Assembly: GCA_016186795.1 (NCBI GenBank)
Contig: JACPKY010000002.1
Location: 861,892-925,891 of the forward strand
From: Candidatus Gottesmanbacteria bacterium
GTDB taxonomy: Bacteria > Patescibacteriota > Microgenomatia > 2-02-FULL-39-11
Direction of reading: 5' to 3'
DNA length: 64,000 nucleotides
A program made the translations under genes and the position numbers. The notes beneath the pieces were generated by a model, which saw only the letters and a list, made by a program, of their open reading frames with translations, was not told the DNA's origin and ran no database searches. Positions 41,571-61,365 of the stretch are shown piece by piece. How positions within the stretch are numbered: the stretch's first letter is position 1; each line of letters begins with the position of its first letter.

Positions 41571-41573
41571 ACC

Positions 41574-44397: not shown

Positions 44398-44406
44398 ACA
44401 AGTAGT

Positions 44407-44730
44407 ATGTTTGCAAAACCAGTGTATGCGGTGAATGTCTGCGATGTTTGGACCTTTTGTAATAATAAGAATTTTGCTTCGCTTGGAAGCATTGTCTCGT
44501 TCTTCCTTCCCAAACTTATCCTGGCTGGGGCTGTCATCTTTTTTATCCTGATTATCGTTGCCGGAGTTGGAGTTATTTCCGGAGCAGGTGGTGATGATGC
44601 CAACGCCAAAGAACAATCCAAGATGTTTTTGACATACGCTGTCATTGGACTTCTTCTTATTTTTGGGGCATACTGGATACTGCAGATTCTCAATTTTATC
44701 TTAGGTGGATCGCTTGGCGGATTATTATAG
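44407..44730 (+). CDS. TrbC/VirB2-like (T4SS-pilin-type) small protein, array member 1
   Basis: ORF 44347..44730; preferred start MFAKPV at 44407; two TM helices around ISGAGGDDANAKEQSK loop. Confidence 0.5.
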   Translation: MFAKPVYAVNVCDVWTFCNNKNFASLGSIVSFFLPKLILAGAVIFFILIIVAGVGVISGAGGDDANAKEQSKMFLTYAVIGLLLIFGAYWILQILNFILGGSLGGLL

Positions 44731-44735
44731 TACCA

Positions 44736-45164
44736 ATGAAAAACTTCAACTTTTTGTTAACTATGGCTTTCCTTTTGGCTTTTGGTGTTACTATCCTTTT
44801 ACCAGTTCAAGAAGTCTTTGCACAAACGAATCCTATTGGCGTCATTATTGCACCAACTGGAGGACTGCTTGCAACACCTGCAATTGATGCGTCAGGAAAG
44901 CTTACCGGGGTTATTGCTCTTTTAAATTCCATCCTGAGACTTATATTTATCACTGCAGGGCTCTGGGGATTTATTAATCTCCTTATTTCGGGATTTCAAT
45001 TTATGACTGCAGGAGGCGACCCAAAAGCAATTTCGAAAGCTTGGGAAAAAATTTGGCAATCATTCTTGGGGCTTCTGATTATTGTCACGTCATTTTTACT
45101 GGCAGCAATTATCGGTATCCTCTTATTTAGAGATCCTGTTGCCATTCTTCAGCCTTCACTATGA
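44736..45164 (+). CDS. TrbC/VirB2-like pilin-type small protein, array member 2
   Basis: 142 aa; signal peptide; FQFMTAGGDPKAISKAWEK loop between two TM helices. Confidence 0.55.
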   Translation: MKNFNFLLTMAFLLAFGVTILLPVQEVFAQTNPIGVIIAPTGGLLATPAIDASGKLTGVIALLNSILRLIFITAGLWGFINLLISGFQFMTAGGDPKAISKAWEKIWQSFLGLLIIVTSFLLAAIIGILLFRDPVAILQPSL

Positions 45165-45616
45165 TGAAACAATTGTTCATTATCCTAATTACTGGTATTT
45201 TTTTCTTTTCAACACCTGTGCTTTCCGTCGATTCTTCAACGGGATTAGGATGCAGCGGTACAGGGAACCCTTTTGGGCCGCTTGCGAGCTTCCTTTGTGA
45301 ATTTAGTCCTGGTGCTAGTGAAGAAAACACAGCAGCTGTGGGAAATAAATTAAATTTCACCTTAAGTAGAATCATAGGCTTTTTAACAATTGTTGCAGCA
45401 CTGTGGTTTATCATCCAAATTATCACCGGCGGCTACCAATGGATTTCATCAGGAGGAGATAAACATGGAGTGGAAACGGCACGCGATAAAATGACGTGGG
45501 CATTTATTGGCCTTCTTGTTGTCGTTTTGGGATGGGTCATTGCTGGAGTTGTAGGAAGAATGCTCGGACTTGATATACTAAATCCGGGAAGTCTCCTGCC
45601 AACACTTGGGCTGTAA
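45161..45616 (+). CDS. TrbC/VirB2-like pilin-type small protein, array member 3
   Basis: 151 aa; signal peptide; YQWISSGGDKHGVETARDK loop between TM helices; ATGA overlap with member 2. Confidence 0.55.
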   Translation: MMKQLFIILITGIFFFSTPVLSVDSSTGLGCSGTGNPFGPLASFLCEFSPGASEENTAAVGNKLNFTLSRIIGFLTIVAALWFIIQIITGGYQWISSGGDKHGVETARDKMTWAFIGLLVVVLGWVIAGVVGRMLGLDILNPGSLLPTLGL

Positions 45617-45622
45617 AAAACT

Positions 45623-45994
45623 ATGAATCACCCGATACTTCTTGCACAAATATCGCCAATAACAAATCCGGTTATAACCAACATTGCGCAACGAACTCCG
45701 GATGAGGCGCCTGTTGTCTTTGCGAAATTTTTTGCAGCTTTGGTTGGCCTTCTCCTTACCGGGGCAACGCTTTTTGCGTTGATACAACTTTTTATCGGAG
45801 CTCTCCAATGGATAGCATCCAGTGGAGATAAAACAGCACTAGAAAATGCCCGTGAACGGATTATCCAAGCAATTGTCGGTCTTGTCATTACTTTTGCCGT
45901 ATGGTCAATTTATCTTATTATCCTTCAATTTTTGGGGATATCACCGATTGGAACAGGAGGATCATTTAATATCGTCATTCCCTCTCTTTTATAA
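45623..45994 (+). CDS. TrbC/VirB2-like pilin-type small protein, array member 4
   Basis: 123 aa; LQWIASSGDKTALENARER loop between TM helices. Confidence 0.55.
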   Translation: MNHPILLAQISPITNPVITNIAQRTPDEAPVVFAKFFAALVGLLLTGATLFALIQLFIGALQWIASSGDKTALENARERIIQAIVGLVITFAVWSIYLIILQFLGISPIGTGGSFNIVIPSLL

Positions 45995-46000
45995 AGATAT

Positions 46001-46462
46001 TTGCTGTTTCCCGAATTCATGGATACTCTTGACAAGATGAAAAGTACATTCCATACTAGGAGTATGAAGAGACTTGTATCTTTTGGCGGCGGTGTAGCTA
46101 CGGTTCTTCTTGCCTCATCGTACACATTTGCAGCCGAGACAAAAATAGTCGTCTCGCAACCTCCAAATCTGAAGATTACTAATTTCGGCAAACTCATTGG
46201 AGCTGCGATTGGGGTTGCTCTCGTCCTTGCAACCCTTGCTGCATTCTTCTTCCTTCTCTGGGGTGGTATCCAATGGATCACCTCAGGAGGAGACAAAGCG
46301 GGGGTTGAATCGGCACAACATAGAATCCAGGCAGCACTTCTTGGTCTTCTTATCGTCTTTTCTAACATCTTCCAGTTTACGATACCCAGTGCTGCAACGA
46401 TTACTAATCCTGCTCCCTTTCTTCCTCCTGGTAACCCTGTTGACAACTATCCTAACGAGTAG
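46001..46462 (+). CDS. TrbC/VirB2-like pilin-type small protein, array member 5
   Basis: 153 aa (start may be MKRLVSF signal at about 46064); IQWITSGGDKAGVESAQHR loop. Confidence 0.55.
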   Translation: MLFPEFMDTLDKMKSTFHTRSMKRLVSFGGGVATVLLASSYTFAAETKIVVSQPPNLKITNFGKLIGAAIGVALVLATLAAFFFLLWGGIQWITSGGDKAGVESAQHRIQAALLGLLIVFSNIFQFTIPSAATITNPAPFLPPGNPVDNYPNE

Positions 46463-46548
46463 AAACAGGAATCTCGACGACTAGTGGAATAGAGGGTAAA
46501 AACTCTACCCTTGACAAGTGAAAAAGAACATACCATACTATCTATATT

Positions 46549-46899
46549 ATGAAAAAGTTATTTGCTACTTTAACCGGTTTCACCTCAGTTTTACTCGCAT
46601 CTTCTCCCGCATTTGCCCAAGATACAACAATTACTATTTCAAGACCCGCAAATTTAAACATTACTGAATTTGGCAAGCTCATCGGGGCAATTATCGGCGC
46701 TGCCCTTGTCCTTGCAACCCTTGCTGCATTCTTCTTCCTTCTCTGGGGTGGTATCCAATGGATCACCTCAGGAGGAGACAAAGCGGGGGTTGAATCGGCA
46801 CAACATAGAATCCAGGCAGCACTTCTTGGTCTTCTTATCGTCTTTTCTATTCCTTTCTATGGAAAATTGGCCAGGCACGAATATCCCCTGTATTCTTAA
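46549..46899 (+). CDS. TrbC/VirB2-like pilin-type small protein, array member 6 (carries 150-bp tract identical to member 5; divergent C-tail)
   Basis: 116 aa; identical LVLATLAAFFFLLWGGIQWITSGGDKAGVESAQHRIQAALLGLLIVFS segment; overlaps next gene start by 41 nt. Confidence 0.45.
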   Translation: MKKLFATLTGFTSVLLASSPAFAQDTTITISRPANLNITEFGKLIGAIIGAALVLATLAAFFFLLWGGIQWITSGGDKAGVESAQHRIQAALLGLLIVFSIPFYGKLARHEYPLYS

Positions 46900-47212
46900 G
46901 ATAGACGTAGGAGGAGGGAAAACCGTCGATGTCCCCACCTTTAAATGCTTAGAAGCAATATTTTCAAGAATTCTCCTCGTTGCCATGTCCCTTGCTCTTC
47001 TTGCTCTTTTTGTCATGCTCGTTATTGGAGGATTTAAATTCCTCACTTCGGGTGGCGACCCAAAAGCAACGGCATCTGCCCAGCAAACAATGACGTTTTC
47101 CTTTGCCGGTATTATTCTTATGGCCGTTGCCTACGTCATCTTTCTAATCATCAAAGCATTTACAGGGATTGATGTCCTTAATTTCACCGTACCAACAGTC
47201 ATCGGCCCCTAA
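46859..47212 (+). CDS. TrbC/VirB2-like pilin-type small protein, array member 7
   Basis: From ORF 46670..47212, start MENWPG at 46859; FKFLTSGGDPKATASAQQT loop between TM helices. Confidence 0.5.
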   Translation: MENWPGTNIPCILKIDVGGGKTVDVPTFKCLEAIFSRILLVAMSLALLALFVMLVIGGFKFLTSGGDPKATASAQQTMTFSFAGIILMAVAYVIFLIIKAFTGIDVLNFTVPTVIGP

Positions 47213-47258
47213 TCCAAAAGCTTGACTTTTCCTTTCCTGAAACGAATAATAAAAGAGT

Positions 47259-48827
47259 ATGCACTTTTCTGCCCGGCTATTTTGTTTCGTTTTTGTTTTT
47301 CTTGCTCTTACCCTCTTTTCCTTTTCCAAAGCCGTACCAATTCATGCTGGACTTTTCGGTGCATTTGAAACGAGCGCAACGGATTGTGATAAAAAGATTG
47401 GAGATGATTGGCAAGAAACTCAGACAAACCCGAGTGGACCAACTAAACTTTATGATTGCAAATCGGGCTATAAGGAAGTAAGTAATGCTCTCCAAGCATT
47501 CAACTGGCAAATTCTGGGATCGACAGATCAACGCTTGTACGAGGCCGGAGAAAAGGGAGCAGTTTTTGCATTTGCTCAACTTAACGACTCAATGATTGAT
47601 ACTCCTCCAGCAAGCGGTCTTGCATACACCGGATATGTCCTTGCAAATATAGGGATTTTCCCAAAAGCCTACGCTCAGGGTATTGGGTTTGTCGGGCTTC
47701 TTCCCCTTTTCCCTCTCTGGGCGGCATTTCGAAACATTGCCTACTCTATTCTTATTATCGTCATGGTCGTTATTGGCTTTATGGTAATCTTTCGTATGAA
47801 AATTGACCCAAAAACGGTTATCTCAATTCAAGCTGCGATACCAAAAATAATTGTTGCACTCCTTCTTATCACCTTCTCCTATCCAATTGCAGGATTTCTT
47901 ATTGACCTTATGTATCTTGCCATGGCTATTGCCATCAACATTATTGCAACATCTCTTCCTGAAGCGACATTTCCTGACTATATGAGAGACTCAGCAGATC
48001 TCCAAAATCTCTTTATAACAGGCGGCTGGGGAGCGCTCTGGGGTTCTGTCTTTAACTTTAGACTCATTGGAGATTTCTTTAAACAAATATTTCTCGGGTC
48101 CTCACTCAATACCGGAGTTGGGATAACAACTGAGCTCCTTAGCGCAATCATTTCAGTGGGATTCGGCGGCGTAGCAGGTGCTGCAGCTATTCCATGGGCT
48201 ATCGGAGGACTTATCGCACCAGTTGCTATCCTTCTTCTTATCATTGGACTCGGACTCCTTTTTACCGTTATCCGCATCACCTTCTTACTTTTGAATGCCT
48301 ATATTCAAATTATTCTTGCGCTTATTTTTAGCCCTATTCTTCTTCTTCAGGAAGCAATTCCCGGACGTTCTGCATTTGGTCAATGGATACAGAATTTAAT
48401 TGCCAACCTTATTGTCTTTCCGGCAACTGTTCTTGTCATCTATGGAAGTTGGATTCTGACAACATTTGCATGGAAATCAAACCTGTGGTCTCCGCCTCTC
48501 ACCCCCGTCGGCGGTGGAGGAGACCTTGGCGGGTCTGGAAATCCAATTGCTGTACTTTTAGGGCTTGGAATGATTTTTATGACGCCAAATCTTATCGCAT
48601 CCATCAAAAAAGCTTTCCACCCAACATCTCCATTGCCTATTTCTGCCGGATCTGCCTTCTCGCCTTTGACCGGTGGAATTTCAACAGGGATGGGGGCAAT
48701 GAGCCAGTTCTACTATATGCAACAACTATGGGGAGCACATGGCCAACCAGGACCGTTACAGGCACTTGTTGGGAAAGTTGCTCCATTCTTACGAGGAGGT
48801 CGTGGGGACCATAACAACCCAAGTTAA
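47259..48827 (+). CDS. Polytopic membrane protein, possibly VirB6/TrbL-like (follows pilin array)
   Basis: 522 aa; signal peptide, about 170-aa extracytoplasmic domain, then 6 or more TM helices and Gly-rich C-tail; placement after VirB2-like genes. Confidence 0.35.
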   Translation: MHFSARLFCFVFVFLALTLFSFSKAVPIHAGLFGAFETSATDCDKKIGDDWQETQTNPSGPTKLYDCKSGYKEVSNALQAFNWQILGSTDQRLYEAGEKGAVFAFAQLNDSMIDTPPASGLAYTGYVLANIGIFPKAYAQGIGFVGLLPLFPLWAAFRNIAYSILIIVMVVIGFMVIFRMKIDPKTVISIQAAIPKIIVALLLITFSYPIAGFLIDLMYLAMAIAINIIATSLPEATFPDYMRDSADLQNLFITGGWGALWGSVFNFRLIGDFFKQIFLGSSLNTGVGITTELLSAIISVGFGGVAGAAAIPWAIGGLIAPVAILLLIIGLGLLFTVIRITFLLLNAYIQIILALIFSPILLLQEAIPGRSAFGQWIQNLIANLIVFPATVLVIYGSWILTTFAWKSNLWSPPLTPVGGGGDLGGSGNPIAVLLGLGMIFMTPNLIASIKKAFHPTSPLPISAGSAFSPLTGGISTGMGAMSQFYYMQQLWGAHGQPGPLQALVGKVAPFLRGGRGDHNNPS

Positions 48828-48850: not shown

Positions 48851-49807
48851 TTGACAGACTACTCCTATTTCCCTACTATTACCCCTATGACAGATATTGT
48901 TGTGGGGGTAGATAGCGGAGGGAGTAAAACCGTGGCAATTGCAGGAACTAAAGATGGAAAAATTCTTGGCCGGGGAACAGCAGGCGCAGCCAACCCGCTC
49001 TCGGTGGGAATTGAAAGAGCTCTTGAAAATATTGTCACGGCAATAAAAAACGCCACATCAGATATTTCCGCCCCAACAATTGTCAGTCTATACGTAGGAA
49101 CAGCGGGAGGAAAACCGAAAGCCCTCAAAGACATGCACAAAGCAATACGGCTCACCTCTCTTCTGAAAATCACAGGAACTATTACGGTTGATCATGACCT
49201 TCGTACAGCGCTTTACTCAGGACTTCCCAATGGTGATGGTATTGTTCTTATTGTTGGAACTGGATCTGCTGCCTTTGGAATTGACAGGAATAAGAATGAA
49301 GTGATTGTTAGCGGCTGGAACCACTGGTTGGGAGAAACGGGTGGGTACGAACTTGGGATAAAAGCAATTATTGCTGCAACAAGAAGCTATGATGGCCGAG
49401 GACCTAAAACTATCCTTGAAAAAGTCGTCGCGGAAAAATTTGCCCTGAAACAGTTTGAGGATATTTCATCACTTATCAAAGCGCCCTTTGTTGATAGCCC
49501 AAAAATTGCATCACTTGCGCCTTTTGTTGCGGATGCTGCAAGAAATGGTGACAAAATCGCCATGAAAATTATCGATGAGATGGTAGAAGAGATGAACTGC
49601 ACAATTTCCGCCGCCGCAAAAAGAGTAGGTATCAAAAAGAATCTCAAAGTGGTACTGGTAGGAGGAATGTTTCGGATGAAAATAAATATTGTGGAAAAAC
49701 TCAAGATGAAACTCTCAAAATGGGCAAAAAATGCCAAGCTTATCTTTCCCAAGGAGGAACCTGGAATAACCGCTTTCAAATTTGCCCTGAAAAATATTAG
49801 TGGGTAA
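48851..49807 (+). CDS. BadF/BadG/BcrA/BcrD-type ATPase (N-acetylglucosamine kinase-like, ASKHA superfamily)
   Basis: 318 aa; phosphate-1 motif DIVVGVDSGGSKT (likely true start MTDIVV at 48887), LIVGTGSAAFG phosphate-2-like motif. Confidence 0.65.
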   Translation: MTDYSYFPTITPMTDIVVGVDSGGSKTVAIAGTKDGKILGRGTAGAANPLSVGIERALENIVTAIKNATSDISAPTIVSLYVGTAGGKPKALKDMHKAIRLTSLLKITGTITVDHDLRTALYSGLPNGDGIVLIVGTGSAAFGIDRNKNEVIVSGWNHWLGETGGYELGIKAIIAATRSYDGRGPKTILEKVVAEKFALKQFEDISSLIKAPFVDSPKIASLAPFVADAARNGDKIAMKIIDEMVEEMNCTISAAAKRVGIKKNLKVVLVGGMFRMKINIVEKLKMKLSKWAKNAKLIFPKEEPGITAFKFALKNISG

Positions 49808-51197
49808 ATAAAAGTTTTGCTGAAGTTTTTCTACCATCCATCTCAACTGCATATTTCCCTTTGTTATTCAGCCATTCCTGCATATGAGTTGCCGCCTCGT
49901 TTAGAGAGACTCTCTTGTATGGATAAGTAATAAGCGCTTCAAGTCTTTTGGAAGATGTTTGTGCAAGCCCGTCACATAAAAGGAGTGCTGATATTTCCAT
50001 TTTATTTTTTCCTCCGTATGAATGATGTAATTTCTTTTCATTCCCTACCCCTTTGAATGGATCTTTCTGTCCTACTTGCCCTGCTGCCCAAACAATTACT
50101 CTACCACTCTTTTCCACAACGTCACCATAATCTCGAAGTGTTGGAACTTCAAATGTAGGAATAAGAATGTCAAATTTCTTCATCCTAGTAATTACTTTTC
50201 TCAAAAGCTCATGTCCGTTTTGATCGTCTCGTTTCCCCTCCTTCAGACAGATTATTTTTCCTGGGTTAAGCGCATGAATTGCTGTTAGTTTCTTGTCGGT
50301 TCTGCCAAGAATAACAATTGTAGCATTGGGGAAAGCAGTGGTGGAAGTCAAGGCAAGAAGCGCCGCATTTGGACCATCTCCAAGGATTGCAATTCGATCC
50401 ACTCTCTCTCTACTCATAAATACCGGATGAAATGCCTCAATACAGCAACTGAGTGGCTCCATCGCCACAAGAAGTGATTCTCGCTTTTTTGGGTCTTTAG
50501 CAATCCAGGTATTTAATGTTTTGGGGACAGGTGAGAGCATATGGTTGGGATATGGAAGACCAAAAGGAGCATGATAAGAAAATCCTGGTAATTCCATGTG
50601 TCCTGGTACTCTTTTGCGTGTATGACGTCCGGCAATATCTCGGTGGCACTCAAGTGCAAAGCCGTTTTTGGAAATTTGCCAATGGTTGTCACAGCGAAGC
50701 GAAGCGTCAATAACGACTCGATCTCCTTTTTTTATCTTCTGAAAATCAATCTCTAAAACGTCATACTTTAGTCCGGTAATACTTTTTTTATCTTTCGAAA
50801 AAACGGGAACAAAGGCAGCAATTTTTCGGGGTTTATCTGAAGAATTCGGAGTTACCGAAACAATAACTCCGCTCCCTTCATGGTTTGGTATCTGTAAAAT
50901 TTTCAGTAACGTTTTTTTATCTCCCCCTATACCATGCGTTTGCAAAAGAGCGAGATTTTCCTCCAATTTTTGTTTTTCCTCAAAGAGATCTTTGTGAAAT
51001 CTTCCCCCCCAATAATATCCATGAGGGCCACCATCACTTCCACAGGGAGCAGAGTACGTGATTTTAATATTGGCAAAGCCGGAATGCGGGATATTTGCCA
51101 TATTCAGAGACGACTTAACGTATTTAACCGCAAAACCATCCTGAGGAAGGATTCCTTTCGGAGAAACAGAAAGATGAGAAATTATTTGTTTTTCCAC
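49797..51197 (-). CDS. Atypically long zinc-dependent dehydrogenase-like protein (MDR superfamily), paralog B
   Basis: 466 aa; CGSDGG and NHEGSGVI catalytic-zinc region blocks, Rossmann IAILGDGPNAALLALTSTTAFPNATIVILG; large insertions relative to canonical about 340-aa MDRs. Confidence 0.55.
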   Translation of the reverse strand: MEKQIISHLSVSPKGILPQDGFAVKYVKSSLNMANIPHSGFANIKITYSAPCGSDGGPHGYYWGGRFHKDLFEEKQKLEENLALLQTHGIGGDKKTLLKILQIPNHEGSGVIVSVTPNSSDKPRKIAAFVPVFSKDKKSITGLKYDVLEIDFQKIKKGDRVVIDASLRCDNHWQISKNGFALECHRDIAGRHTRKRVPGHMELPGFSYHAPFGLPYPNHMLSPVPKTLNTWIAKDPKKRESLLVAMEPLSCCIEAFHPVFMSRERVDRIAILGDGPNAALLALTSTTAFPNATIVILGRTDKKLTAIHALNPGKIICLKEGKRDDQNGHELLRKVITRMKKFDILIPTFEVPTLRDYGDVVEKSGRVIVWAAGQVGQKDPFKGVGNEKKLHHSYGGKNKMEISALLLCDGLAQTSSKRLEALITYPYKRVSLNEAATHMQEWLNNKGKYAVEMDGRKTSAKLLFTH

Positions 51198-51217
51198 TAT
51201 TCGTTCTATTGAGATAC

Positions 51218-52795
51218 CTATTGTTGGGTCGCCAACGCCTGCGAGGAACCTGTATGTGAAAATAGTACACCTCTATTACCGTGGTCAATAATGATCTTTC
51301 CTGATGTTGACCTATCCATTTCTACCGGATAGCTTCCCCGTCTATCTATCCATTGCTGCATTGCAGCAGCTCCTCCTTCCATACTCATATAAAAATAGGG
51401 GTAGTTCAAAACCGCCTCCAATCGTTTTGGATGTAATTGCGAAAGAGTCTTCATAAATTCAAGCGCTGTCCATTCTGCCTGATTCCATCCTCCATATGAA
51501 TGGTGAATTTTATCTGGATCACCCACACCTTCAAAAGGATCTTCCTTCCCTACCTGGTCAGCATTCCAAACAATGACCCGACCTTTTTTTTTGACAAGCT
51601 CTCTATAGTTCTTCAGAGAACCGACATGAAAGGTTGGAATAAGAACATCAAGTTTCCTCCCATCAAGCCTTTCCCGTATCTCTGAATGTGCATGGCGTCC
51701 TCCTTCCTTGTCCACATAAACTCCATGGATCTTCTTGGGATTTATAGCCTCAATTGCATTCACTTTCCTTCGCGTATGTCCGGTGACATAAATCTCTGCT
51801 TTGGGGAAAACAGTTGTGGAAGTCAAGGCAAGAAGCGCAGCATTTGGACCATCTCCCAAAATTGCAATTCGTTTCGGAATAGATTCAGTTTTCATTTCAC
51901 CCTGAATACCCATCAGAATCGGTTGAAGCGCTTCAAAACAACAGCTGAACGGTTCTGTGGATATAAGAATAGGAAGCCGTCTCTCGGGGTCTTCCTCAAT
52001 CCATTTCCGCAACTCAACTGGAACTTTGGTTAACATATGACTCTTGTACGGAAGTCCGTACTCTGCAACACTTGAATCTCCAATCATTTCGCTATGCCCT
52101 GGTACCCGTTTCCTATCATGGCCATCATCAGTTTTTCGATCGCATTTATCCGGAAATCCTGTTTTGGGATTGATTTGCCAGTGCTGATCACACCGAAGAG
52201 CAGCATTAGTAACAACCAAGTCTCCGGGCTGGAAATCCTGAAAATCTACATAAACCACCTCATACCTTGCGCCGATAACCCTTTTTTTATCACCAGAAAG
52301 TACAGGAAGAAAAGCGGCAACCGGACGCAGTCCATCTTCTTTATTTGCCTTTGTTGCCATCACAACTCCAAATCCTTCATGATTTGGAGTATTGAGTAAT
52401 GCTAATGCCTGAGCTTCCTCTACTCTCAACCCTTCCTCTTCCATAATAAAGGTATTTACCATCCGCTTTACCATTCCCTCTGCAGCTGCGACTAATGCTT
52501 GATATTCTTCTGCTTGATATTCTTCCTTATCAGAGGGTGTATCCGATGGGAAAACCGGATGTCCCAAATCTGCATGAGCCCGCCCTCCAAGATAATATCC
52601 ACCTCTTCCCCCATCACTCCCACATGGAGATGACATTAAATTTTGAACGTAAGAAATCCCTGGAGGAGGAACACGCAACATTTCAACAGAAGTATGTGCT
52701 AAAGATACCTTAAATCCCTGTTCAGGAGAAGGTCCATTTGGAACAACCTGTAAGTGGTCAACCGTTTGCTGAATATACTGTTCAGATTCAACCAT
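51218..52795 (-). CDS. Atypically long zinc-dependent dehydrogenase-like protein (MDR superfamily), paralog A
   Basis: 525 aa; shares CGSDGGRGGYY, NHEGFGVV, IAILGDGPNAALLALTSTT, RVIVWNADQVG, HHSYGG blocks with 49797..51197. Confidence 0.55.
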   Translation of the reverse strand: MVESEQYIQQTVDHLQVVPNGPSPEQGFKVSLAHTSVEMLRVPPPGISYVQNLMSSPCGSDGGRGGYYLGGRAHADLGHPVFPSDTPSDKEEYQAEEYQALVAAAEGMVKRMVNTFIMEEEGLRVEEAQALALLNTPNHEGFGVVMATKANKEDGLRPVAAFLPVLSGDKKRVIGARYEVVYVDFQDFQPGDLVVTNAALRCDQHWQINPKTGFPDKCDRKTDDGHDRKRVPGHSEMIGDSSVAEYGLPYKSHMLTKVPVELRKWIEEDPERRLPILISTEPFSCCFEALQPILMGIQGEMKTESIPKRIAILGDGPNAALLALTSTTVFPKAEIYVTGHTRRKVNAIEAINPKKIHGVYVDKEGGRHAHSEIRERLDGRKLDVLIPTFHVGSLKNYRELVKKKGRVIVWNADQVGKEDPFEGVGDPDKIHHSYGGWNQAEWTALEFMKTLSQLHPKRLEAVLNYPYFYMSMEGGAAAMQQWIDRRGSYPVEMDRSTSGKIIIDHGNRGVLFSHTGSSQALATQQ

Positions 52796-52867
52796 AAGCG
52801 ATTATTTTTCTTCAAATGATAGTTTCCAGTAGTTTTTCGGATTTACCAGGCAATCTATTTGAACCAT

Positions 52868-53641
52868 TTACATTCTCTCTAATCCACCGTGCTGTAGGGA
52901 CGGTAAAAATCCATACTGGGTAAGAGGTACCCCTTCAGGATGGAGGCCGTTATTAAAAGGGTAGCCATCAAACGTACCTCCGGAATGAGGATCTATCTCA
53001 AGTAAATTTCCAACCACAAGATGAGCCCCTGCATTATAAAGTTCTTCTCGTGAAGCATGACCCGTCTCCAAACCTATTGTCCAAAATCCCGCATTTCTTC
53101 CTCCTTGAATATCCGATCTAGGAGAATCACCTACCATTACAACTTGGCTCGGTTGTAACCCAGGGATATCTCCTCTTACCATGTTGTATGCAAAATCAAA
53201 AGGCGCACGATCCGGCTTGGATCTCTCTGTTAAACCGGCTGTCACAACATAATCAACGAGAGGTCTCAGATCAAAACGGTTTACCAATGCAGCTATATAG
53301 CCAAGATGGCCGGAGGTAAGTAAAATTGTTCGCATGCCCTCTTCTCGAGCTCCTTCCAACAATTCCCGTGCGCCAGGATTTAAATTTAAATTTGAATTAG
53401 GACTTCGCACGATTCCTTCTACAATCTCTCGACGTTGCCTTTCGAGGGTATAAATATCTTCGGGCAACCCTAAATAATCTTTTGCCAGCTGAATAACATC
53501 TAATGGTCTTAATCCGACACGAACATCAGGAATTTCAGTAACTGGAGTGCCGAACAGCTGTTGCCACGTCGGTCGATGGACCGTTTCTTCTGAATCTCTC
53601 ACTAGCAAATCATCAACGTCTTTTATGAGAACTCGTATCAT
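52868..53641 (-). CDS. HAD superfamily hydrolase (phosphatase)
   Basis: 257 aa; motif I VLIKDVDDLLV (DxD), motif II LLTSG, motif IV VMVGDSPRSD. Confidence 0.65.
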   Translation of the reverse strand: MIRVLIKDVDDLLVRDSEETVHRPTWQQLFGTPVTEIPDVRVGLRPLDVIQLAKDYLGLPEDIYTLERQRREIVEGIVRSPNSNLNLNPGARELLEGAREEGMRTILLTSGHLGYIAALVNRFDLRPLVDYVVTAGLTERSKPDRAPFDFAYNMVRGDIPGLQPSQVVMVGDSPRSDIQGGRNAGFWTIGLETGHASREELYNAGAHLVVGNLLEIDPHSGGTFDGYPFNNGLHPEGVPLTQYGFLPSLQHGGLERM

Positions 53642-53812
53642 AATACCGATAAAAAACCACGGATGCTACCGTGGTGTATTTTGTAAAAATCTTCTCATGG
53701 AAGCTTACGTTTATGGATAAAAGCCATATAGATCAGCCTCATATTCATACTTTATCATACTATTAGGATAAAAATCAAGTCGGGGATAATTATAGGAAGC
53801 TTTTAAAGCAAC

Positions 53813-54364
53813 TTATAGTGATTGAGGCTCATTCGTTCCAACAATACTCTGAAATTGGGCATACTGAGGCTCTAAATCTTTTGATGTATCAATCGAAAAA
53901 CTCACATTGGGGTATTCCTCAAAAATCTTCTCCTTCACCTCAACATGGTGTTTATAATCGACAATGCTATCAGATTTTCGAAGCCGAACTCGTTCGTCCA
54001 TACGCTTTTTACATTCGTCTTCATCGCACACTACCTTCACAACGTAAACCGGGACTCCCATCTTTTGAGCAACTTCTTTTGCCATTTCAATATATTGAAT
54101 CTTCTGAAATGTCGCATCCAAAATCACATTTTTTCCCTGCTGGAGCATCAGTTCAGCGCAATAGAGCATAATCCTATAGGAAAGGAGAATTTCGTCTTTT
54201 GAAAACGGCATGAGAGGAACATTAGCACACTGATACGCATTGCATCCTAGAATATTTCGTCGGATATGGTTTGTCCCCAACACAAGTGCACCGGTTATTT
54301 CTGAAAGCTTCTGTGCCAATGTCGATTTTCCTACTCCTGGAAGACCATGAAGAATAATAAGCAT
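53813..54364 (-). CDS. Small P-loop kinase (AAA_33/gluconokinase-like NMP-kinase fold)
   Basis: 183 aa; Walker A ILHGLPGVGKSTLA at N-terminus, size and lid region typical of small-molecule P-loop kinases. Confidence 0.55.
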   Translation of the reverse strand: MLIILHGLPGVGKSTLAQKLSEITGALVLGTNHIRRNILGCNAYQCANVPLMPFSKDEILLSYRIMLYCAELMLQQGKNVILDATFQKIQYIEMAKEVAQKMGVPVYVVKVVCDEDECKKRMDERVRLRKSDSIVDYKHHVEVKEKIFEEYPNVSFSIDTSKDLEPQYAQFQSIVGTNEPQSL

Positions 54365-54370
54365 AATAAA

Positions 54371-55759
54371 TTAGTATACTATTTTTGGTTCCATCCCCCA
54401 AAGTTGAATTGCTGCGGCAAGCGCACTCTTTGGGTTTTTCTCTGCATACTCTTTCACGGTCATACCCGAAGATACTGCTTTTCGAGCCTCAATTGCCGCC
54501 TCCACTCCCCGCTCCACTCCCTGTGGATGACCCAAAACTCCCCCTCCCATTTGGATATAACAGTCTTTTCCAAGAGTTGCCACCACTTGGTCAAGAACTC
54601 CTGGATGAAGACCACCTGAGGCAACCGGCCAAACCGTTTTCATCCCAAACCAATTCTGACCTAAAGTGCTGAATTTTTCATTCGGAGGTGTTTGATCTGT
54701 TGTTAAAACCCGCATCACCTCTGCACTTTCCCCATAATCCTCCATTTTTGCTTTCGGTGATCCTGAGTGAATACTATCAACTCCCAAAAGTCGAAAAATT
54801 TTAGCAAGAGCAACCATAGAAATACTAAATCCTTGTATTTCACCAACTCCTTCAATTCCATCTCCACTTTCTCTTGTTATAAATGCATGCATCGCCCGAT
54901 GCGCATGAATAACAAGGCCCGGATTTTTGAGACGCATGGTGTGCACTGCGGCAAATCCGGTCGTCACAACATCAATCATCATACACCGACCACCTGTCTC
55001 TTTGATCCAATTTGCTCTATCGATCATTGTATCAATATTTGAATGGGTAAGATTGCACAGGTAAAGTTTCTTTTTTCCTGTTTTTGTTTCCACTTCTTTT
55101 TGAACCTCATGAACCAGTTTTGCCCGTTCCTTAAAATCGTTGAAAAAAAGGCTTGTCAGATTCTCGTCATCCTTGAGAAAATCATATGTTCCATCTCCTG
55201 CTGTCCAAAGTCTTCTTGCAAGGATTGCCTGTTCCTTTGCAGTTCGTCCAACCTTCGGTTTTGGTACCGTTCCAATAATTGGCATCGTGCGTTGGCTTTC
55301 GTCTTGATCCAAAAGGTCCCGTACACCTTCAATTCCGTATCTGGGACCGGGGAAACTTTCTACCATTTTACGGGGAAATCGCATATCAAAAACACGAACT
55401 CCGCAAACCATCTTCATGCCACCGATATTTCCAACAGGACCTGCTAAAAATCCTGACATATTATCCACTTCAAACAAGTCTGTTTTATACGCAACCTTAA
55501 ACATCCGGTTTTCCTCATCGAGATCATAGGCCATTGCTTTGTAGTCATCGGCCATTTTAATCCCTGAGTCTTGTCCTTCATCAACCTTTGTCCACGTTCC
55601 AGTTGATGATTCAGCAGCAACGGAAGCAGCTGCCTCAGGAAATACACTTTTATCTATACCACCTGCTAGCTCTATCTTAAATTGCAACAGTACATAATTT
55701 TCGTCGGGATTTTCTGGTTTCCAAGAAGGAGGCGCAATGTAGTTAAGTTGTACTGCCAT
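54371..55759 (-). CDS. rbcL: Ribulose-1,5-bisphosphate carboxylase/oxygenase large subunit, form II/III-like
   Basis: 462 aa; GTYDFLKDDENL (carbamylated Lys block GxDFxKDDE), HAHRAMHAFITR, GGGVLGHPQG blocks. Confidence 0.8.
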   Translation of the reverse strand: MAVQLNYIAPPSWKPENPDENYVLLQFKIELAGGIDKSVFPEAAASVAAESSTGTWTKVDEGQDSGIKMADDYKAMAYDLDEENRMFKVAYKTDLFEVDNMSGFLAGPVGNIGGMKMVCGVRVFDMRFPRKMVESFPGPRYGIEGVRDLLDQDESQRTMPIIGTVPKPKVGRTAKEQAILARRLWTAGDGTYDFLKDDENLTSLFFNDFKERAKLVHEVQKEVETKTGKKKLYLCNLTHSNIDTMIDRANWIKETGGRCMMIDVVTTGFAAVHTMRLKNPGLVIHAHRAMHAFITRESGDGIEGVGEIQGFSISMVALAKIFRLLGVDSIHSGSPKAKMEDYGESAEVMRVLTTDQTPPNEKFSTLGQNWFGMKTVWPVASGGLHPGVLDQVVATLGKDCYIQMGGGVLGHPQGVERGVEAAIEARKAVSSGMTVKEYAEKNPKSALAAAIQLWGMEPKIVY

Positions 55760-55855: not shown

Positions 55856-58800
55856 TTAATGGTGACCCCCTCCCCCACCACCTTCTTCCTCTTCATCTTT
55901 TGCTGTCAATGCCTGATACATCATCAGAACCCATGCCATCATAATTCCAAGCGTTATCGCCTCATAAAGAGCATGGAATTTGGTTCCTCCTATCTCTTCC
56001 TCAAGCTGATGAACTGAGTAAGCTAGTTCCGCACCCCCAATATAATCCGCATGCTTCCAGGGAAGAAGATTTTCTGCTCCAAGTCGGTGTGCAAATTCAT
56101 ATAATTTATTTGCATCCCAAGCAGCCCCTGCTTGACGACTGCTTACTTTCTGGGCAATTGAGCTATCGACACCCAAAGCCACAAGTTTACCAAATATGCC
56201 AGTTTTACTCGCCCACCAAGCTTGTTTAAAAAACTTAGCTGTTGCCTCTGCATGGAGGGCAATTTTTTTCTCGGAAAACCATTTATCATCTTCCTCATAT
56301 GCTTCAGACATCTCATGGAAACTTTCAAAAATGGCTTTCATATCTCCACTCGTACTTAAATTTCTTGTTACATACTTCATCTCTGCTTTAAGTCCCTTTG
56401 CGTGTCCTTCAAAATCACCACCACGCCTTGCCCATTGTCTATACCCGAGATTAATAAGTTCCATTTTGTCCCATACGACGTCTTCGGTACTAAGAAGATA
56501 CGGGTTCTTTTTATGTAATAGTTCTTCTGTGAGTTGAAAATAGGGGGCAGAAGTGGGATCTCGTCTGGCAGCCTCATGAGCCCGCTCCAAGATGGCATTT
56601 ATATGCTTTTTCGGATGTCGATGATGTGCATCCCACACATTGTCCCAATTTAATATAAGGTTTTTTCCTTGACCATTCTCGCTATAATGAAGTCCTAATG
56701 CTTCCATCCATTCCCGTTCTGACCATGTACCTAAAATTGCCTTTTTTGATTTCCGAAAATATTCCCGTGCACGAGTTTGTCGAAGAATTGTCTCAGCCCG
56801 ATCCTCCACCCAATTCCCTTGGGCATCTTGCCGGACTGCCTTAATTTTGTCAAAGTCACTCTCATACCAAACGCCATTTACTTGTTCACGAACTTCACGA
56901 ATCGCTCTTGGACCCTTTTCATCGTACAACGAGGCATGGGCAACAATATCAATGTCTCCTTCTAACACTCCGATCTGCTCTCGAAGCCACCTTTTGTGCG
57001 TATTGGTAATGTTACCACCAACATCAAAAATATGCTCGAAATCAAGCCCTGGGAACATTTCCTCAATAATCTTATCTCGAAGTGATTTTTTCCGCAGTTT
57101 CCCGTGATACTGTTCCATAACGTATGTGTTCCTCGCCACAATATGCGGACTTCGAGTGGCCATCTGCACCCAGGTAAACGTATTATAGATATCATTTACT
57201 TCTTGAGTCAGTTCTTCAATGGCATGAACCATGGGTTTCCCGTGCTCTGTAAGTTCTTTCCACTCTCTACGTACATCTGCGGTATAAATTCCAAGAAGCG
57301 GCTCCTCGTTTTTCCCAGCTTTCCGCCACTCTCTTTCAAACCACTCCATATCAACTGCCTGACCATTTGGTAATAAATAATCTCCTTCCCGTACGTCTCC
57401 CATTCTCCGAAGCTTTATTTTCCCGGTTGAAATAAGTTCATATAAAAATCTCTCTTTGAAATGTCTCTCGACTAAAAATTCTTTCACGTCTTCAGTTGCC
57501 CATTTCTTGTTCATAAAAGATAGCCGTATCGAACCGCCAAGGTACTCTCTCTCACGATCAAGCATGCCTATTATCGCATCGTGCACTCCCCATGTACTCC
57601 ATGGACCAAATCTGCCGGAAAACATCCCGTAGGCATACTTTTGCATGAAAGACTCAGCCTTATCACCGAATTCTTCTTCAAAAGTACCATTCACTATCGC
57701 ATCAAATACTCTCTGCGGTTCATTAATATCAAACACTTTTCCTTTCTCGCCTTCTCCTGCACCAATAATAATATTCCAGTACGCTCTAAATTTATCATCG
57801 GCAACACGCCATTTCATAAATAAGTGAAGGGGGTTTATAAAGCGGGACATTCCTTCATAGGGAACGCTGGAAAATACTTTATCCTTATCACTCCAATCAG
57901 GCATATCCTGAGGTATCCATGCAGGAACTCGCTGGAGTGCAAATATCTCAAGAAGTCGGGCGCTTAATAGTCCAAACCCTTTTGCCTGCTGGAGAGCGGC
58001 GTTTAGTCGCCACTTCCCTTCTCCGTCAAACTGGGAACGGCGGACAGGATTTTCTCTATCCCAAATAACTCGTCTTCCATCTCTATCTTTCATCACTGTC
58101 CCATCGGGATTTCGCATTGCATCATGAATAACTCCTGCGTCAACCATCTGCATAAATCTGTCATAAACCATCTCATCCCAGAGCGAATCTCCGGCAAACC
58201 GACCGTCAGCCGTTGGCTCAACAAACTGGGGAGGAATTCTCCCGTTGAAGGTTTTTAATACGTCCCACAAGACTCTTTCGTATAAATTGATGAGCTGCTC
58301 AACAATTGGATCTTCCATCATATCCATGGTGAAAGAGTTGCGTGAGAATGTTGTTAGAACCTTCCAACTCTCTTCATTTCCTTCGGGGTGAAGAGCAATA
58401 ACAACCGCATCGTGTGCCGCAAAGATTCCATACATTCTATTCGTTAACCTGCTTGAGAGTTTGTATCCCCCTTCATACTCTTGAATCATCTCCATCAGTT
58501 CATTCATTGCTTCGGCTTCGTACAAACCCCAAGCGTCACGATGTTGTTCTGTGGCTTTGGCAAGAACACGCCTGAGAATTTTATAAAACGTTTGCTCAAA
58601 GATGACTGCTCGTTTTTTCCCTTCATCAACTTGACCGGTAACCGAATCAAGAAGTGACCGTAACTGGACCTCATCAATATCAAACATTGCAAGCGTTCGG
58701 GATTCCTGATACCGCTCACCTCTTTCCTGAGCAGCTCTTGCTTGCATTTTCCGTTTGTGCTTCAAGATATGCTGAGTGAACTGCCACGAGTTTTCCATTG

Positions 58801-59677
58801 TTAAACGATCTCTTTCTGGTAATGCCGCTGTATCTCTCATAACATCAAGTATTTTCCGATTAAATTCTTCAAGAGCTACTTCGTACTTTTTCTTGTAAAC
58901 GATATGCCCTAGCCTTGATAGATTTGTGTCTTCTTCAGCAGAATCAGACGTATCTGTAAACTCATTGGGGTTTGCAGCTATTCGTTCTTTGAGATACTGG
59001 TAGACTCGCTTTTCTCCAACTGATGCATTTGGATCAATTGATCCATACCGGCCGGTAAAATCAAGCGGAGTCACTGGCGTTCTTGGCCTTCCGATTTCTG
59101 CTCCTCCTCTTTCTGGTGGAACGTTTGCCTCATACGCAGTCCGTGCATTTGTCAAATCCGCATTGTAGTCGGCATTTCGGATGTCCGGTAAACTCAAATT
59201 ATGAATTTGCTGCAATCGAAACTCGATCCGCTGTCCAAGTTGTTCTAAACTTCGTAAATCCCTGTCGTTTTGAGGAAGCGGTGCAATCTCCTGCTGCAAG
59301 AAACTGACATCTCTTAACTTCTTAAGAAGAATATCGTATGTTGCCGCATCTTGAGCAAGGTGAGGAGTCACACTTCTAAGTTCAACGATGAGATTGACAA
59401 CACCCGGATTATTCGATAATGTCTGCGGGGTAAAGGCAAGACCTTGGAGAAGATGCCCAGCTGGAAGATTTCTGAGCATTTCCAAAACTTCTTGTGCCCG
59501 CGCTTCGCTATATTTCGGATAATGCTTCTTTGATTTGAGTCTTCCCTCAACCTCTGCACGCTGTAGAATTCTTTCTGCTGCTAGTCGTGCTTCCAAAACC
59601 GGATCACGAACTTCGGGAGTTCCCCCTCGTCCCAATGCTCCTTGAACAAGTCTCGTCAAGGTCTCTAAAAACGCCAT
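55856..59677 (-). CDS. Giant (1273 aa) hypothetical protein, soluble with single C-terminal TM and Glu/Gly/His tail
   Basis: Uninterrupted ORF; no signal peptide; C-terminal LYEAITLGIMMAWVLMMYQAL TM then KDEEEEGGGGGGHH; Trp/Arg/Glu-rich; no recognised catalytic motif. Confidence 0.6.
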   Translation of the reverse strand: MAFLETLTRLVQGALGRGGTPEVRDPVLEARLAAERILQRAEVEGRLKSKKHYPKYSEARAQEVLEMLRNLPAGHLLQGLAFTPQTLSNNPGVVNLIVELRSVTPHLAQDAATYDILLKKLRDVSFLQQEIAPLPQNDRDLRSLEQLGQRIEFRLQQIHNLSLPDIRNADYNADLTNARTAYEANVPPERGGAEIGRPRTPVTPLDFTGRYGSIDPNASVGEKRVYQYLKERIAANPNEFTDTSDSAEEDTNLSRLGHIVYKKKYEVALEEFNRKILDVMRDTAALPERDRLTMENSWQFTQHILKHKRKMQARAAQERGERYQESRTLAMFDIDEVQLRSLLDSVTGQVDEGKKRAVIFEQTFYKILRRVLAKATEQHRDAWGLYEAEAMNELMEMIQEYEGGYKLSSRLTNRMYGIFAAHDAVVIALHPEGNEESWKVLTTFSRNSFTMDMMEDPIVEQLINLYERVLWDVLKTFNGRIPPQFVEPTADGRFAGDSLWDEMVYDRFMQMVDAGVIHDAMRNPDGTVMKDRDGRRVIWDRENPVRRSQFDGEGKWRLNAALQQAKGFGLLSARLLEIFALQRVPAWIPQDMPDWSDKDKVFSSVPYEGMSRFINPLHLFMKWRVADDKFRAYWNIIIGAGEGEKGKVFDINEPQRVFDAIVNGTFEEEFGDKAESFMQKYAYGMFSGRFGPWSTWGVHDAIIGMLDREREYLGGSIRLSFMNKKWATEDVKEFLVERHFKERFLYELISTGKIKLRRMGDVREGDYLLPNGQAVDMEWFEREWRKAGKNEEPLLGIYTADVRREWKELTEHGKPMVHAIEELTQEVNDIYNTFTWVQMATRSPHIVARNTYVMEQYHGKLRKKSLRDKIIEEMFPGLDFEHIFDVGGNITNTHKRWLREQIGVLEGDIDIVAHASLYDEKGPRAIREVREQVNGVWYESDFDKIKAVRQDAQGNWVEDRAETILRQTRAREYFRKSKKAILGTWSEREWMEALGLHYSENGQGKNLILNWDNVWDAHHRHPKKHINAILERAHEAARRDPTSAPYFQLTEELLHKKNPYLLSTEDVVWDKMELINLGYRQWARRGGDFEGHAKGLKAEMKYVTRNLSTSGDMKAIFESFHEMSEAYEEDDKWFSEKKIALHAEATAKFFKQAWWASKTGIFGKLVALGVDSSIAQKVSSRQAGAAWDANKLYEFAHRLGAENLLPWKHADYIGGAELAYSVHQLEEEIGGTKFHALYEAITLGIMMAWVLMMYQALTAKDEEEEGGGGGGHH

Positions 59678-59752: not shown

Positions 59753-60541
59753 TTAAGAGGAGGGAACAAATGTATAAGGAGTCAGATGTTTGAATTGATT
59801 CGCTTTATAGCGAAGAAGAACTTTTTTGACAATATCAGGAGAAAACCCGCTTGGAATAATTTCTTTCTCTGTTTTCTTCTTATCATGGAGTTGGAATAAA
59901 ATTCTATCAGCATCTTCATACGAAAAACCAAATTCGGTCTCGTCAGTTTGCCCCTCCCAAAGACCCGCGGTTGGATGGATTGCAATAATTGCAGAGGGAA
60001 TACCTAAATACTGGGCAAGTTTTTGTATCTGCGTCTTGTAAAAGTTCAAAAGCAACTCTACATCCGACGCTTCATCTCCAAACCTTGTAAAGTATCCAAG
60101 AAGATGTTCTGTTTTATTTTCTGTCCCTAAAACAAGTGCATTACGCATCTTTGCTTGATCAAAAAGACACATCATACGAACTCTCGCCATCACGTTTCCT
60201 TTCCGTACACGATCTACCGAGGGATCAGTTGAAACGTACTCATCGACGATTGGCTGAATATCGATGCGACAGACATTTTCGTAGGGAATGTGCAACCAAG
60301 AAATTACTTCGCTTGCGTATTTTTCCCCGGACTGATTAAACGCACCATAAGGTAAAAGGTGTGGAAAAACATTTTTCTCTCCAATTGCCTGGACTGCAAG
60401 GGTAGCGGCTACTGTCGAGTCAACTCCCCCTGATAAACCGATAACAAATCTGGGTCTATCAGTCTCTTGAACTATTTTCTTTATAAAAAGTTTGATTTCT
60501 TCAAGAGTTTTTCCCCAATCGAGTGGTCCCAAATCATTCAT
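59753..60541 (-). CDS. nadE: NH3-dependent NAD+ synthetase
   Basis: 262 aa; PP-loop VIGLSGGVDSTVAATLA. Confidence 0.8.
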   Translation of the reverse strand: MNDLGPLDWGKTLEEIKLFIKKIVQETDRPRFVIGLSGGVDSTVAATLAVQAIGEKNVFPHLLPYGAFNQSGEKYASEVISWLHIPYENVCRIDIQPIVDEYVSTDPSVDRVRKGNVMARVRMMCLFDQAKMRNALVLGTENKTEHLLGYFTRFGDEASDVELLLNFYKTQIQKLAQYLGIPSAIIAIHPTAGLWEGQTDETEFGFSYEDADRILFQLHDKKKTEKEIIPSGFSPDIVKKVLLRYKANQFKHLTPYTFVPSS

Positions 60542-60547
60542 AAGGTA

Positions 60548-61320: not shown

Positions 61321-61365
61321 CGTATTTAGAATTTTACCACGATTGACGTACTTTTGGGGAAATAC

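Follow-up and report, generated by a model that had tools for sequence, protein, structure and literature searches.

A small AAA_33 kinase paired with form III-like RuBisCO in Gottesmanbacteria alternates with phosphoribulokinase and is a candidate for RuBisCO substrate supply

In a 64,000-nucleotide stretch of a Candidatus Gottesmanbacteria genome (positions 861,892 to 925,891 of contig JACPKY010000002.1; in the following, the window), the gene of a form III-like RuBisCO is directly followed by that of a small P-loop kinase of the AAA_33 family. The firm result of our comparison with related loci (designated by L numbers) is this two-gene RuBisCO–kinase cassette and its alternation with classical phosphoribulokinase (PRK). 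The supply of ribulose-1,5-bisphosphate (RuBP) to the form III-like RuBisCOs of candidate phyla radiation (CPR) bacteria has so far been inferred only from distant deoA, e2b2 or PRK genes, and a small RuBisCO-linked kinase that swaps places with PRK offers a concrete candidate for this step, one that can be tested cheaply. Beside the cassette lies a module composed of a phosphatase, two unusually long zinc dehydrogenases of the medium-chain dehydrogenase/reductase (MDR) type, and a sugar kinase. New are a RuBisCO with a putative substrate-supplying kinase that is not homologous to PRK and, next to it, an MDR subfamily that could not be recognized before. Our reading, held tentatively and with somewhat less than even confidence, is that the kinase supplies the pentose bisphosphate for RuBisCO and that the module probably feeds the kinase. 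The evidence is comparative throughout.

The RuBisCO–kinase pair and its alternation with phosphoribulokinase

The kinase gene (183 amino acids (aa), also termed KIN33; 53813–54364, minus strand) starts 6 nucleotides (nt) behind the RuBisCO gene (462 aa; 54371–55759, minus strand). An earlier note on this DNA had raised the question of whether such neighbours co-occur with RuBisCO in related genomes, and for the kinase they clearly do: it lies directly downstream of RuBisCO in eight of the nine distinct kinase loci, with gaps of 3–66 nt. The pair was found in the window and in L001, L003, L008, L009, L053, L133–L136, and L137/L138, and it occurs in three different flanking contexts. In L008, L009, and L133, NadD-NadE are encoded upstream and an inositol-monophosphatase-family protein downstream; in L137, FtsA-FtsZ and a sigma factor precede the pair, and an unknown 427-aa protein and a MacB-type ABC transporter follow it; in L053 (52–5157), the flanks encode a TraG/VirD4-like coupling protein and a tyrosine recombinase, which suggests that the pair can sit on or beside a mobile element. 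As a control, we used a metagenome scan with the kinase alignment. Its patterns are generic P-loop motifs, and apart from one orthologue (L053) it retrieved 79 AAA_33 loci that are unrelated; RuBisCO, PRK, and the MDR family of the neighbouring module were present in none of these 79 loci of generic AAA_33 kinases (at most 36% identity). The searchable literature holds no mention of a pairing of RuBisCO with an AAA_33 kinase.

In sister Gottesmanbacteria loci whose RuBisCOs are 72–79% identical to the window enzyme, the position beside RuBisCO is taken by different kinases. Classical PRK (PF00485) adjoins RuBisCO in L010–L012 and L014–L018 (eight species-representative genomes), three of which (L010, L015, and L017) also have a HAD_2 gene; the AAA_33 kinase is found there in L008 and L009, and neither kinase in L013. 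The PRK-linked and the kinase-linked RuBisCOs are interleaved within one clade, and the AAA_33 kinase and PRK never occur within 10 kb of each other in the related loci. None of the 120 top-ranking relatives of a PRK from Gottesmanbacteria came from the 1,118,283-bp source contig of the window, which is only suggestive.

The RuBisCO matched the Pfam families RuBisCO_large (PF00016; E = 3e-62) and RuBisCO_large_N (PF02788; 1e-25), and it scored 394 bits with the TIGR03326 model (rubisco_III), under the cutoff of that model. In comparison with the structures 8dht and 3a13, the catalytic and RuBP-binding motifs are all kept (AESSTGTW, GN, PKPK, KDDE, HR, H..G, K.E, SGG, and GGG). The residues checked were, in spinach numbering, K175, K177, K201, D203, E204, H294, R295, H327, K334, S379, G381, G403, and G404, and further E60, T65, W66, and N123. 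Because these motifs are conserved without exception, the enzyme is, as judged from its sequence, a bona fide and catalytically complete RuBisCO. Its assignment to form II/III in the earlier note was wrong. The form IIIb structures are matched best (8dht with 284 bits and 1geh with 274 bits), as against the II/III enzyme 5mac, which aligns in part and reaches 186 bits (assignment of PDB entries to RuBisCO forms as in PMC13454268). The window enzyme has an 11-residue insertion, IEGVGEIQGFS, opposite gaps in both form IIIb structures 8dht and 3a13, and such an insertion, about 11 residues long in comparison with form IIIb, is typical of form III-like enzymes (Jaffe et al., 2018, PMC6389311, citing Wrighton 2016). 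Moreover, the 90% cluster of the L013 RuBisCO, which is 76% identical to the window enzyme and belongs to the same clade, holds VDD88793.1 and VDD88896.1, two nr entries titled 'RuBisCO long chain, Form III-like'. By these sequence features the enzyme is of form III-like and not of form II/III, the grouping being based on depositor labels in the L013 cluster and not on a phylogeny with labelled references.

That the second gene encodes a Walker A kinase, as had been noted before, is borne out by a match to AAA_33 (PF13671) with E = 3.8e-23 and 82.8 bits against a cutoff of 27, and the Walker A motif GLPGVGKS is invariant in the family. We found about 35 clusters of family members at 51–88% identity, with the next sequences at 40% or less, and all named members are from Gottesmanbacteria. 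The structural model of the kinase (predicted local distance difference test score, pLDDT, 87) is nearest to PSTK, APS kinase, the kinase domain of PFK-2, and polynucleotide kinase; of these, PFK-2 and APS kinase transfer phosphate to a hydroxyl group of a sugar or nucleotide that already bears one. The PRK family PF00485 is not among the best 25 of the 26 Pfam families that match the kinase at E values up to 0.1, and there is no PRK among the top 50 fold matches of the model. By these comparisons, the kinase is not a homologue of PRK, with which it has only the P-loop in common. Roles as a gluconokinase, a PhnN-like kinase, or a polynucleotide kinase were also considered, and among the matches listed, no specific model supports any of them.

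The dehydrogenase module and its surroundings

All six open reading frames described in the earlier note were present in our listing with the same coordinates and strands, in a region that includes the locus tags HYW55_05905 and HYW55_05910. The kinase gene is followed, after 171 nt, by the gene of a HAD-superfamily phosphatase (257 aa; 52868–53641, minus strand) and then by the genes of two MDR paralogs on the same strand, paralog A (525 aa; 51218–52795) after 72 nt and paralog B (466 aa; 49797–51197) after a further 20 nt. From the other side, the gene of a BadF/BcrAD-family sugar kinase (48851–49807, plus strand) converges on paralog B, as had been described, and the 3' ends of the two genes overlap by 11 nt; the true start of the sugar kinase may be an internal ATG near 48887. 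The 171-nt gap contains a terminator-like hairpin (53656–53675, minus strand; 7-bp stem with five G-C pairs, followed by a T-run), which was called by consensus match, the count of such sites in this region being no higher than in shuffled sequence. Because of this hairpin, the six genes are probably not the single operon that the earlier note had assumed, which we regard as uncertain. There are probably two transcription units, with RuBisCO and the AAA_33 kinase in unit 1, and the HAD phosphatase, the two MDR paralogs, and the convergent BadF kinase in unit 2.

The two paralogs share 44% identity, and searches of Pfam, NCBIfam, and PDB sequences gave nothing significant for either. In Pfam, paralog A had no match at all, and paralog B reached ADH_N with E = 0.069 and 13.8 bits against a cutoff of 23.5. 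The MDR-type call of the earlier note was right, and only structure and profile methods could show it. An AlphaFold model of paralog B, made from a 10-sequence alignment (pLDDT 90.5, pTM 0.91), retrieved L-arabinitol 4-dehydrogenase in Foldseek with E = 6e-15, followed by threonine, butanediol, sorbitol, and glucose dehydrogenases; the best matches have E values of about 1e-14. The Foldseek probability was 1.00, with target-normalised TM scores of 0.65–0.74 to threonine dehydrogenase (TDH) and polyol dehydrogenases, and TarJ ranked 39th. With hhalign, the paralog family aligned to ordinary MDRs over 298 columns (98.6% probability, E = 1e-15), and the nearest ordinary-sized relatives are found in the TDH/SDH/IolM/GatD branch. 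An ordinary 328-aa zinc MDR dehydrogenase with ADH_N and ADH_zinc_N domains, encoded elsewhere in the window (16734–17720, plus strand), was used for comparison. By model and profile, the paralogs belong to the threonine/polyol branch of the zinc MDR dehydrogenases.

Among 25 family members, some of which are only about 25% identical, the catalytic zinc ligands C52, H106, E107, and E247 are invariant, as are G273 and G275 of the Rossmann GDG motif. Also invariant are C169, H172, C184, and H192, which stand in place of the usual Cys4 structural-zinc lobe, a part of the paralog B model with low confidence (pLDDT 55–72). Paralog A keeps all of the catalytic and second-site residues, and because the ligands, the glycines, and the second-site residues are all invariant, both paralogs look catalytically competent. 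The two proteins are indeed outsized, as had been remarked, with an insertion between the CGSDGG and NHEG blocks: the spacing from Cys to His is 54 residues in paralog B and 81 in paralog A, which carries the larger insertion, as against 22–26 in ordinary MDRs. That the enzymes use NADP and an anionic, phosphorylated substrate is suggested by a G-[R/K]-T motif behind beta-2 and by a large number of invariant basic residues (Arg and Lys), which include R66, R124, R168, R186, and K195. The sole PDB sequence-profile match, TarJ, is an NADPH-dependent ribulose-5-phosphate reductase, and this match is weak (E = 0.005) and covers the Rossmann motif only. The family is very rare: a set of 5.8 billion proteins yielded 10 clusters, and one of 1.84 billion yielded 31 representatives. 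As a whole subfamily of zinc dehydrogenases it is invisible to Pfam and NCBIfam despite its intact catalytic ligands.

The HAD phosphatase predicted earlier was confirmed by Pfam, with PF00702 (Hydrolase), PF13242 (Hydrolase_like), and PF13419 (HAD_2) all above their cutoffs and with an N-terminal DVDD motif. It also showed weak NCBIfam matches to phosphoglycolate phosphatase and nucleotidase models and weak PDB matches to beta-PGM-like proteins, NANP, and AtCbbY. The BadF kinase matched BcrAD_BadFG (PF01869) with E = 3.6e-33 and 115.7 bits. It is NagK-like, the NagK equivalog being the only NCBIfam model matched, below its cutoff, and the best PDB matches are the MurNAc/GlcNAc kinase MurK (4e-30) and the Sulfolobus tokodaii hexokinase (5e-26).

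The MDR family is present in eleven loci, and nearly all of them combine one or two MDR genes with the genes of a HAD protein and a BadF kinase, the latter usually tail-to-tail with the MDR gene; in the loci with a single MDR gene (L001 and L004), two genes of short-chain dehydrogenases/reductases are present. Orthologues of the HAD gene adjoin MDR genes in L002 and L003, and the BadF kinase gene adjoins an MDR gene in L001, L002, L004, L006, L007, L052, and L140. The overlap of the MDR and BadF 3' ends amounts to 11–35 nt (window, 49797–49807; L001, 11376–11410; L052, 2195–2220; L140, 2740–2750), and therefore no room is left for a terminator between them. The co-occurrence that the earlier note had raised thus holds for the module too: MDR, HAD, and BadF genes are kept together across related loci and form a real, separately conserved unit. 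RuBisCO and the AAA_33 kinase adjoin this unit in the window, L001, and L003; in L004, the kinase and the module occur without RuBisCO, and in an ENA contig a classical PRK is followed by HAD and then MDR. Wherever the module is near RuBisCO, a kinase, be it AAA_33 or PRK, always lies in between, and the two are never adjacent without one. Unassigned proteins of 375–427 aa without Pfam match are encoded beside the kinase or inside the module in L137 (10573–11856), L003 (5782–6996), and L007 (3614–4741).

Upstream of RuBisCO, at a distance of 96 nt, lies the gene of a 1273-aa protein to which no family could be assigned (55856–59677, minus strand). Its sole Pfam match is a sub-threshold HTH_56, and it ends in EEEEGGGGGGHH. 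Homologues are encoded upstream of RuBisCO in L001 and beside hexokinase in L002 and L013; the hexokinase of L133 is followed by an unnamed 1296-aa gene, for which a match to the window protein was not established. The hexokinase in these loci is of the eukaryote type (PF00349 and PF03727; L002, 7982–9211; L013, 17550–18803; L133, 18602–19831), and in L013, Leloir-pathway genes (GalE-like and GalT) fill the slot beside RuBisCO. Still further upstream in the window follow, on the minus strand, genes of a NAD synthase (59753–60541) and a nicotinate-nucleotide adenylyltransferase-like protein (60548–61108), both matched to Pfam-annotated L133 genes. The stretch 59753–63959 (minus strand) also includes genes for Wzy_C-like, Jag (KH/R3H), and YidC proteins, named from gene order and from BLAST clusters with L008, L009, and L013. 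In L133, the same gene order runs on into rnpA, dnaA, and dnaN, and therefore the replication origin is probably some 10 kb away from the RuBisCO cluster, which lies in a variable stretch of carbohydrate metabolism.

On the other side, about six small membrane proteins with a common C-terminal '...GGD(K/P)...' segment are encoded in tandem (44347–48827, plus strand) and may represent a pilus or secretion apparatus. Two 275-nt copies in this array (46090–46364 and 46575–46849) are 82% identical, and behind the array lies the gene of a polytopic membrane protein of 522 aa without Pfam match, homologues of which are encoded beside RuBisCO in L003 and also occur in L002. More distant in the window are a mevalonate-pathway set (35516–42722, minus strand; HMG-CoA reductase, HMG-CoA synthase-like protein, thiolase, two GHMP kinases, and diphosphomevalonate decarboxylase) with an undecaprenyl-diphosphate synthase-like gene recognized by eye at 35516–36235, and genes for a [NiFe]-hydrogenase large subunit (PF00374) and an Oxidored_q6-type small subunit (5380–7192, minus strand) with a DUF6390 gene upstream. 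An Rfam search of the window from 44 to 64 kb gave no match.

Possible routes to ribulose-1,5-bisphosphate

We propose that the AAA_33 kinase phosphorylates a pentose monophosphate and thereby yields the substrate of RuBisCO or its immediate precursor. The most likely step would be the conversion of ribulose-5-phosphate (Ru5P) to RuBP, in which case the kinase would be a non-homologous stand-in for PRK; this PRK-like activity (Ru5P + ATP → RuBP) is suggested by one observation, the alternation with PRK beside orthologous RuBisCOs. Alternatively, ribose-1-phosphate (R1P) or ribose-5-phosphate (R5P) could be converted to ribose-1,5-bisphosphate (R15P). Unit 2 would most likely phosphorylate a sugar or polyol and then oxidize the phosphorylated compound, probably with NADP, and it would probably pass a pentose-5-phosphate on to the kinase, so that flux would run from the module towards RuBisCO. 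What ties unit 2 to RuBisCO is that a kinase of either type always lies between them. In a more far-reaching version, a new non-homologous PRK, NADP-dependent sugar-phosphate MDRs, and a hexokinase-like kinase would form a self-contained shunt from scavenged hexose or polyol through Ru5P and RuBP to two molecules of 3-phosphoglycerate (3-PGA), independent of the Calvin cycle and of the AMP pathway, but we regard this as unlikely.

The RuBisCO neighbourhood lacks AMP phosphorylase and R15P isomerase, as had been noticed earlier, and it is not the canonical deoA–RuBisCO–e2b2 arrangement. A phmmer search of six-frame open reading frames with the E. coli DeoA gave no match, either in the window or in 50 related loci, and motifs of e2b2 were likewise found in none of these. 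Pfam scans of 27 window open reading frames, which include most of those with at least 250 aa, revealed no IF-2B, Glycos_transf_3, or PRK. In 43 related RuBisCO loci, a sample of which was also scanned with Pfam, neither deoA nor e2b2 lies within 10 kb of RuBisCO. Ten unknown open reading frames near RuBisCO in L010, L013, and L014 were considered as e2b2 or deoA candidates and turned out to encode DsbA-like and TnsA-like proteins, glycosyltransferases, an MFS transporter, GalE, GalT, and ApbA. In the same way, the RuBisCO neighbours in Dojkabacteria (clusters c1 and c5) were identified by Pfam as ProRS and a radical-SAM protein. In Dojkabacteria and their relatives (L019–L044), form III-like RuBisCO is embedded among ArgRS, ProRS, UvrA, and TrpRS, with no deoA or e2b2 nearby, and in the three Micrarchaeota loci L046–L048, RuBisCO is adjoined by a protein in the BLAST cluster of the Dojkabacteria ProRS.

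A number of observations weigh against our proposal, and they concern the kinase as well as the module. In an hhalign comparison with a profile of Gottesmanbacteria and cyanobacterial PRKs, the kinase gave 59% over 41 columns of the P-loop only, and of the families that the earlier note had considered for it, AAA_33 stood, but no PRK or gluconokinase model is among the 25 best-scoring Pfam and NCBIfam families listed. The PRK-cluster accessions OGG22495 and OGG33719 follow the kinase-cluster accessions OGG22239 and OGG33220 by 256 and 499 numbers, and because these numbers lie close, some genomes may hold both kinases. In this organism, too, RuBP may come from the standard AMP route, since Jaffe et al. 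(PMC6389311) found deoA and e2b2 in about 91% of their Gottesmanbacteria genomes. For the five accessory proteins, the substrates are inferred. All of the examples belong to one narrow clade, and the majority to one syntenic region (NadD-NadE and further genes), and for this reason the linkage of unit 2 to RuBisCO may, at least partly, be inherited gene order. The link is also weakened by the hairpin, which splits unit 1 from unit 2, and by the BadF kinase, which is hexokinase/MurK-like and resembles kinases of hexoses and amino sugars rather than those of pentitols. Finally, L002, L006, and L007 contain the module without RuBisCO or either kinase, next to PfkB, a DeoC/DUF2090 aldolase, hexokinase, or NadE, and such company suggests an independent hexose or inositol-type route. 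The alternative route to RuBP postulated in the earlier note is therefore sustained only in part: the non-canonical neighbourhood and the position of the kinase between RuBisCO and the module fit, but the module also exists without RuBisCO.

Many of these points would be expected if the neighbourhood were simply inherited, with the RuBisCO serving the standard AMP pathway through deoA and e2b2 genes elsewhere in the genome, and with the module devoted to an unrelated catabolism of sugars, amino sugars, or inositol. We consider this possible, though on balance unlikely. It accords with the frequency of AMP-pathway genes in Gottesmanbacteria, with the hairpin, with the likeness of the BadF kinase to hexose and MurNAc kinases, and with the occurrence of the module without RuBisCO in L004 as well as in the three loci named above; the inositol-monophosphatase-family gene and the Leloir-pathway genes can be added to its telling neighbours. 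It does not explain, however, why RuBisCO and the kinase form a tight pair in three unrelated contexts, one of them with mobile-element-like flanks, nor why a kinase (AAA_33 or PRK) is always found between RuBisCO and the module, or beside the module. The tight pairing would be accounted for if the kinase made R15P from R1P (or R5P), as the archaeal ADP-dependent R1P kinase does, with an e2b2 isomerase encoded elsewhere. Form III-type enzymes normally serve the pentose bisphosphate pathway (PMC6389311, PMC5113843), and the possible co-occurrence with PRK in some genomes would agree with such a role. Yet the same place beside orthologous RuBisCOs is taken either by PRK or by the kinase, the module adjoins either PRK or the AAA_33 kinase, which suggests that the two are equivalent, and neither the window nor any of the related loci showed an e2b2, and thus we judge this version improbable.

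The polyol shunt outlined in the earlier note, in which a single six-gene operon would lead from polyol through polyol-phosphate, Ru5P, and RuBP to 3-PGA and replace the AMP pathway, appears more doubtful still. The paralogs do belong to the polyol/threonine dehydrogenase branch, their sole PDB sequence-profile match is a reductase that forms ribitol-5-phosphate, and the window contains no deoA or e2b2, but that match is weak and confined to the Rossmann motif, the hairpin separates the kinase gene from the HAD gene, the BadF kinase is hexokinase/MurK-like, and replacement of the AMP pathway is unlikely from the literature. We give very little credence to the idea that the kinase and the HAD phosphatase are housekeeping or regulatory partners of RuBisCO that, in the manner of CbbY and CbbZ, remove inhibitory sugar bisphosphates or 2-phosphoglycolate. 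HAD phosphatases do occur beside RuBisCO and PRK in L010, L015, and L017, and the window HAD weakly matches phosphoglycolate phosphatase models and AtCbbY, but these matches are far under the family cutoffs, the window HAD shows no BLAST relation to the HAD_2 gene of the PRK loci, and it travels with MDR genes and not with RuBisCO. To our knowledge, there is also no RuBisCO repair role that needs a P-loop kinase. Supply of the pentose bisphosphate by the AAA_33 kinase, with the module probably feeding it, is the reading we retain.

Relation to known systems

If the kinase is a PRK analogue, a non-homologous enzyme would exist for one of the two reactions that are the signature of the Calvin cycle, and surveys of carbon fixation that score PRK (K00855) would miss it. 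In classical cbb operons, the order is cbbL-cbbP-cbbY/Z. The RuBisCO–kinase loci resemble these operons and the RuBisCO–PRK loci of Gottesmanbacteria in that RuBisCO stands beside a P-loop kinase, often with a HAD phosphatase. They differ in that the window kinase is a 183-aa AAA_33 protein with only the P-loop in common with PRK, the HAD phosphatase is of another subfamily, and no other genes of the Calvin–Benson–Bassham cycle are nearby. PRK itself has been described in some Gottesmanbacteria by Jaffe et al. (2018, PMC6389311), who found the complete set of three AMP-pathway genes in about 91% of the genomes examined. With the AMP pathway of archaea and CPR bacteria, which consists of DeoA, E2b2, and form III RuBisCO, the system shares a form III-type RuBisCO in a reduced metabolism, and the kinase could act as an R1P kinase. 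Here, however, the neighbours of RuBisCO are a kinase, a phosphatase, and dehydrogenases, and there is no deoA or e2b2 within 64 kb.

The paralogs share the GroES-like and Rossmann folds with the MDRs of the threonine/polyol branch, namely TDH, sorbitol dehydrogenase, L-arabinitol 4-dehydrogenase, the galactitol-1-phosphate 5-dehydrogenase GatD, the scyllo-inosose 3-dehydrogenase IolM, and the ribulose-5-phosphate reductase TarJ. They also share the catalytic Cys, His, and Glu, the EPxS-type Glu, and, as in the nearest ordinary-sized relatives, a GDGP nucleotide-binding motif. Unlike these enzymes, they are 120–180 residues longer, carry two inserts (a helical one of 30–60 residues that separates the Cys ligand from the His ligand, and another of about 34 residues), have a Cys-His-Cys-His set instead of the Cys4 lobe, and fall below all Pfam and NCBIfam thresholds. 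The BadF kinase, in turn, is clearly similar in sequence to MurK and to the S. tokodaii hexokinase, but differs from both in its gene arrangement, as genes of the window type lie tail-to-tail with an MDR gene, with overlapping 3' ends.

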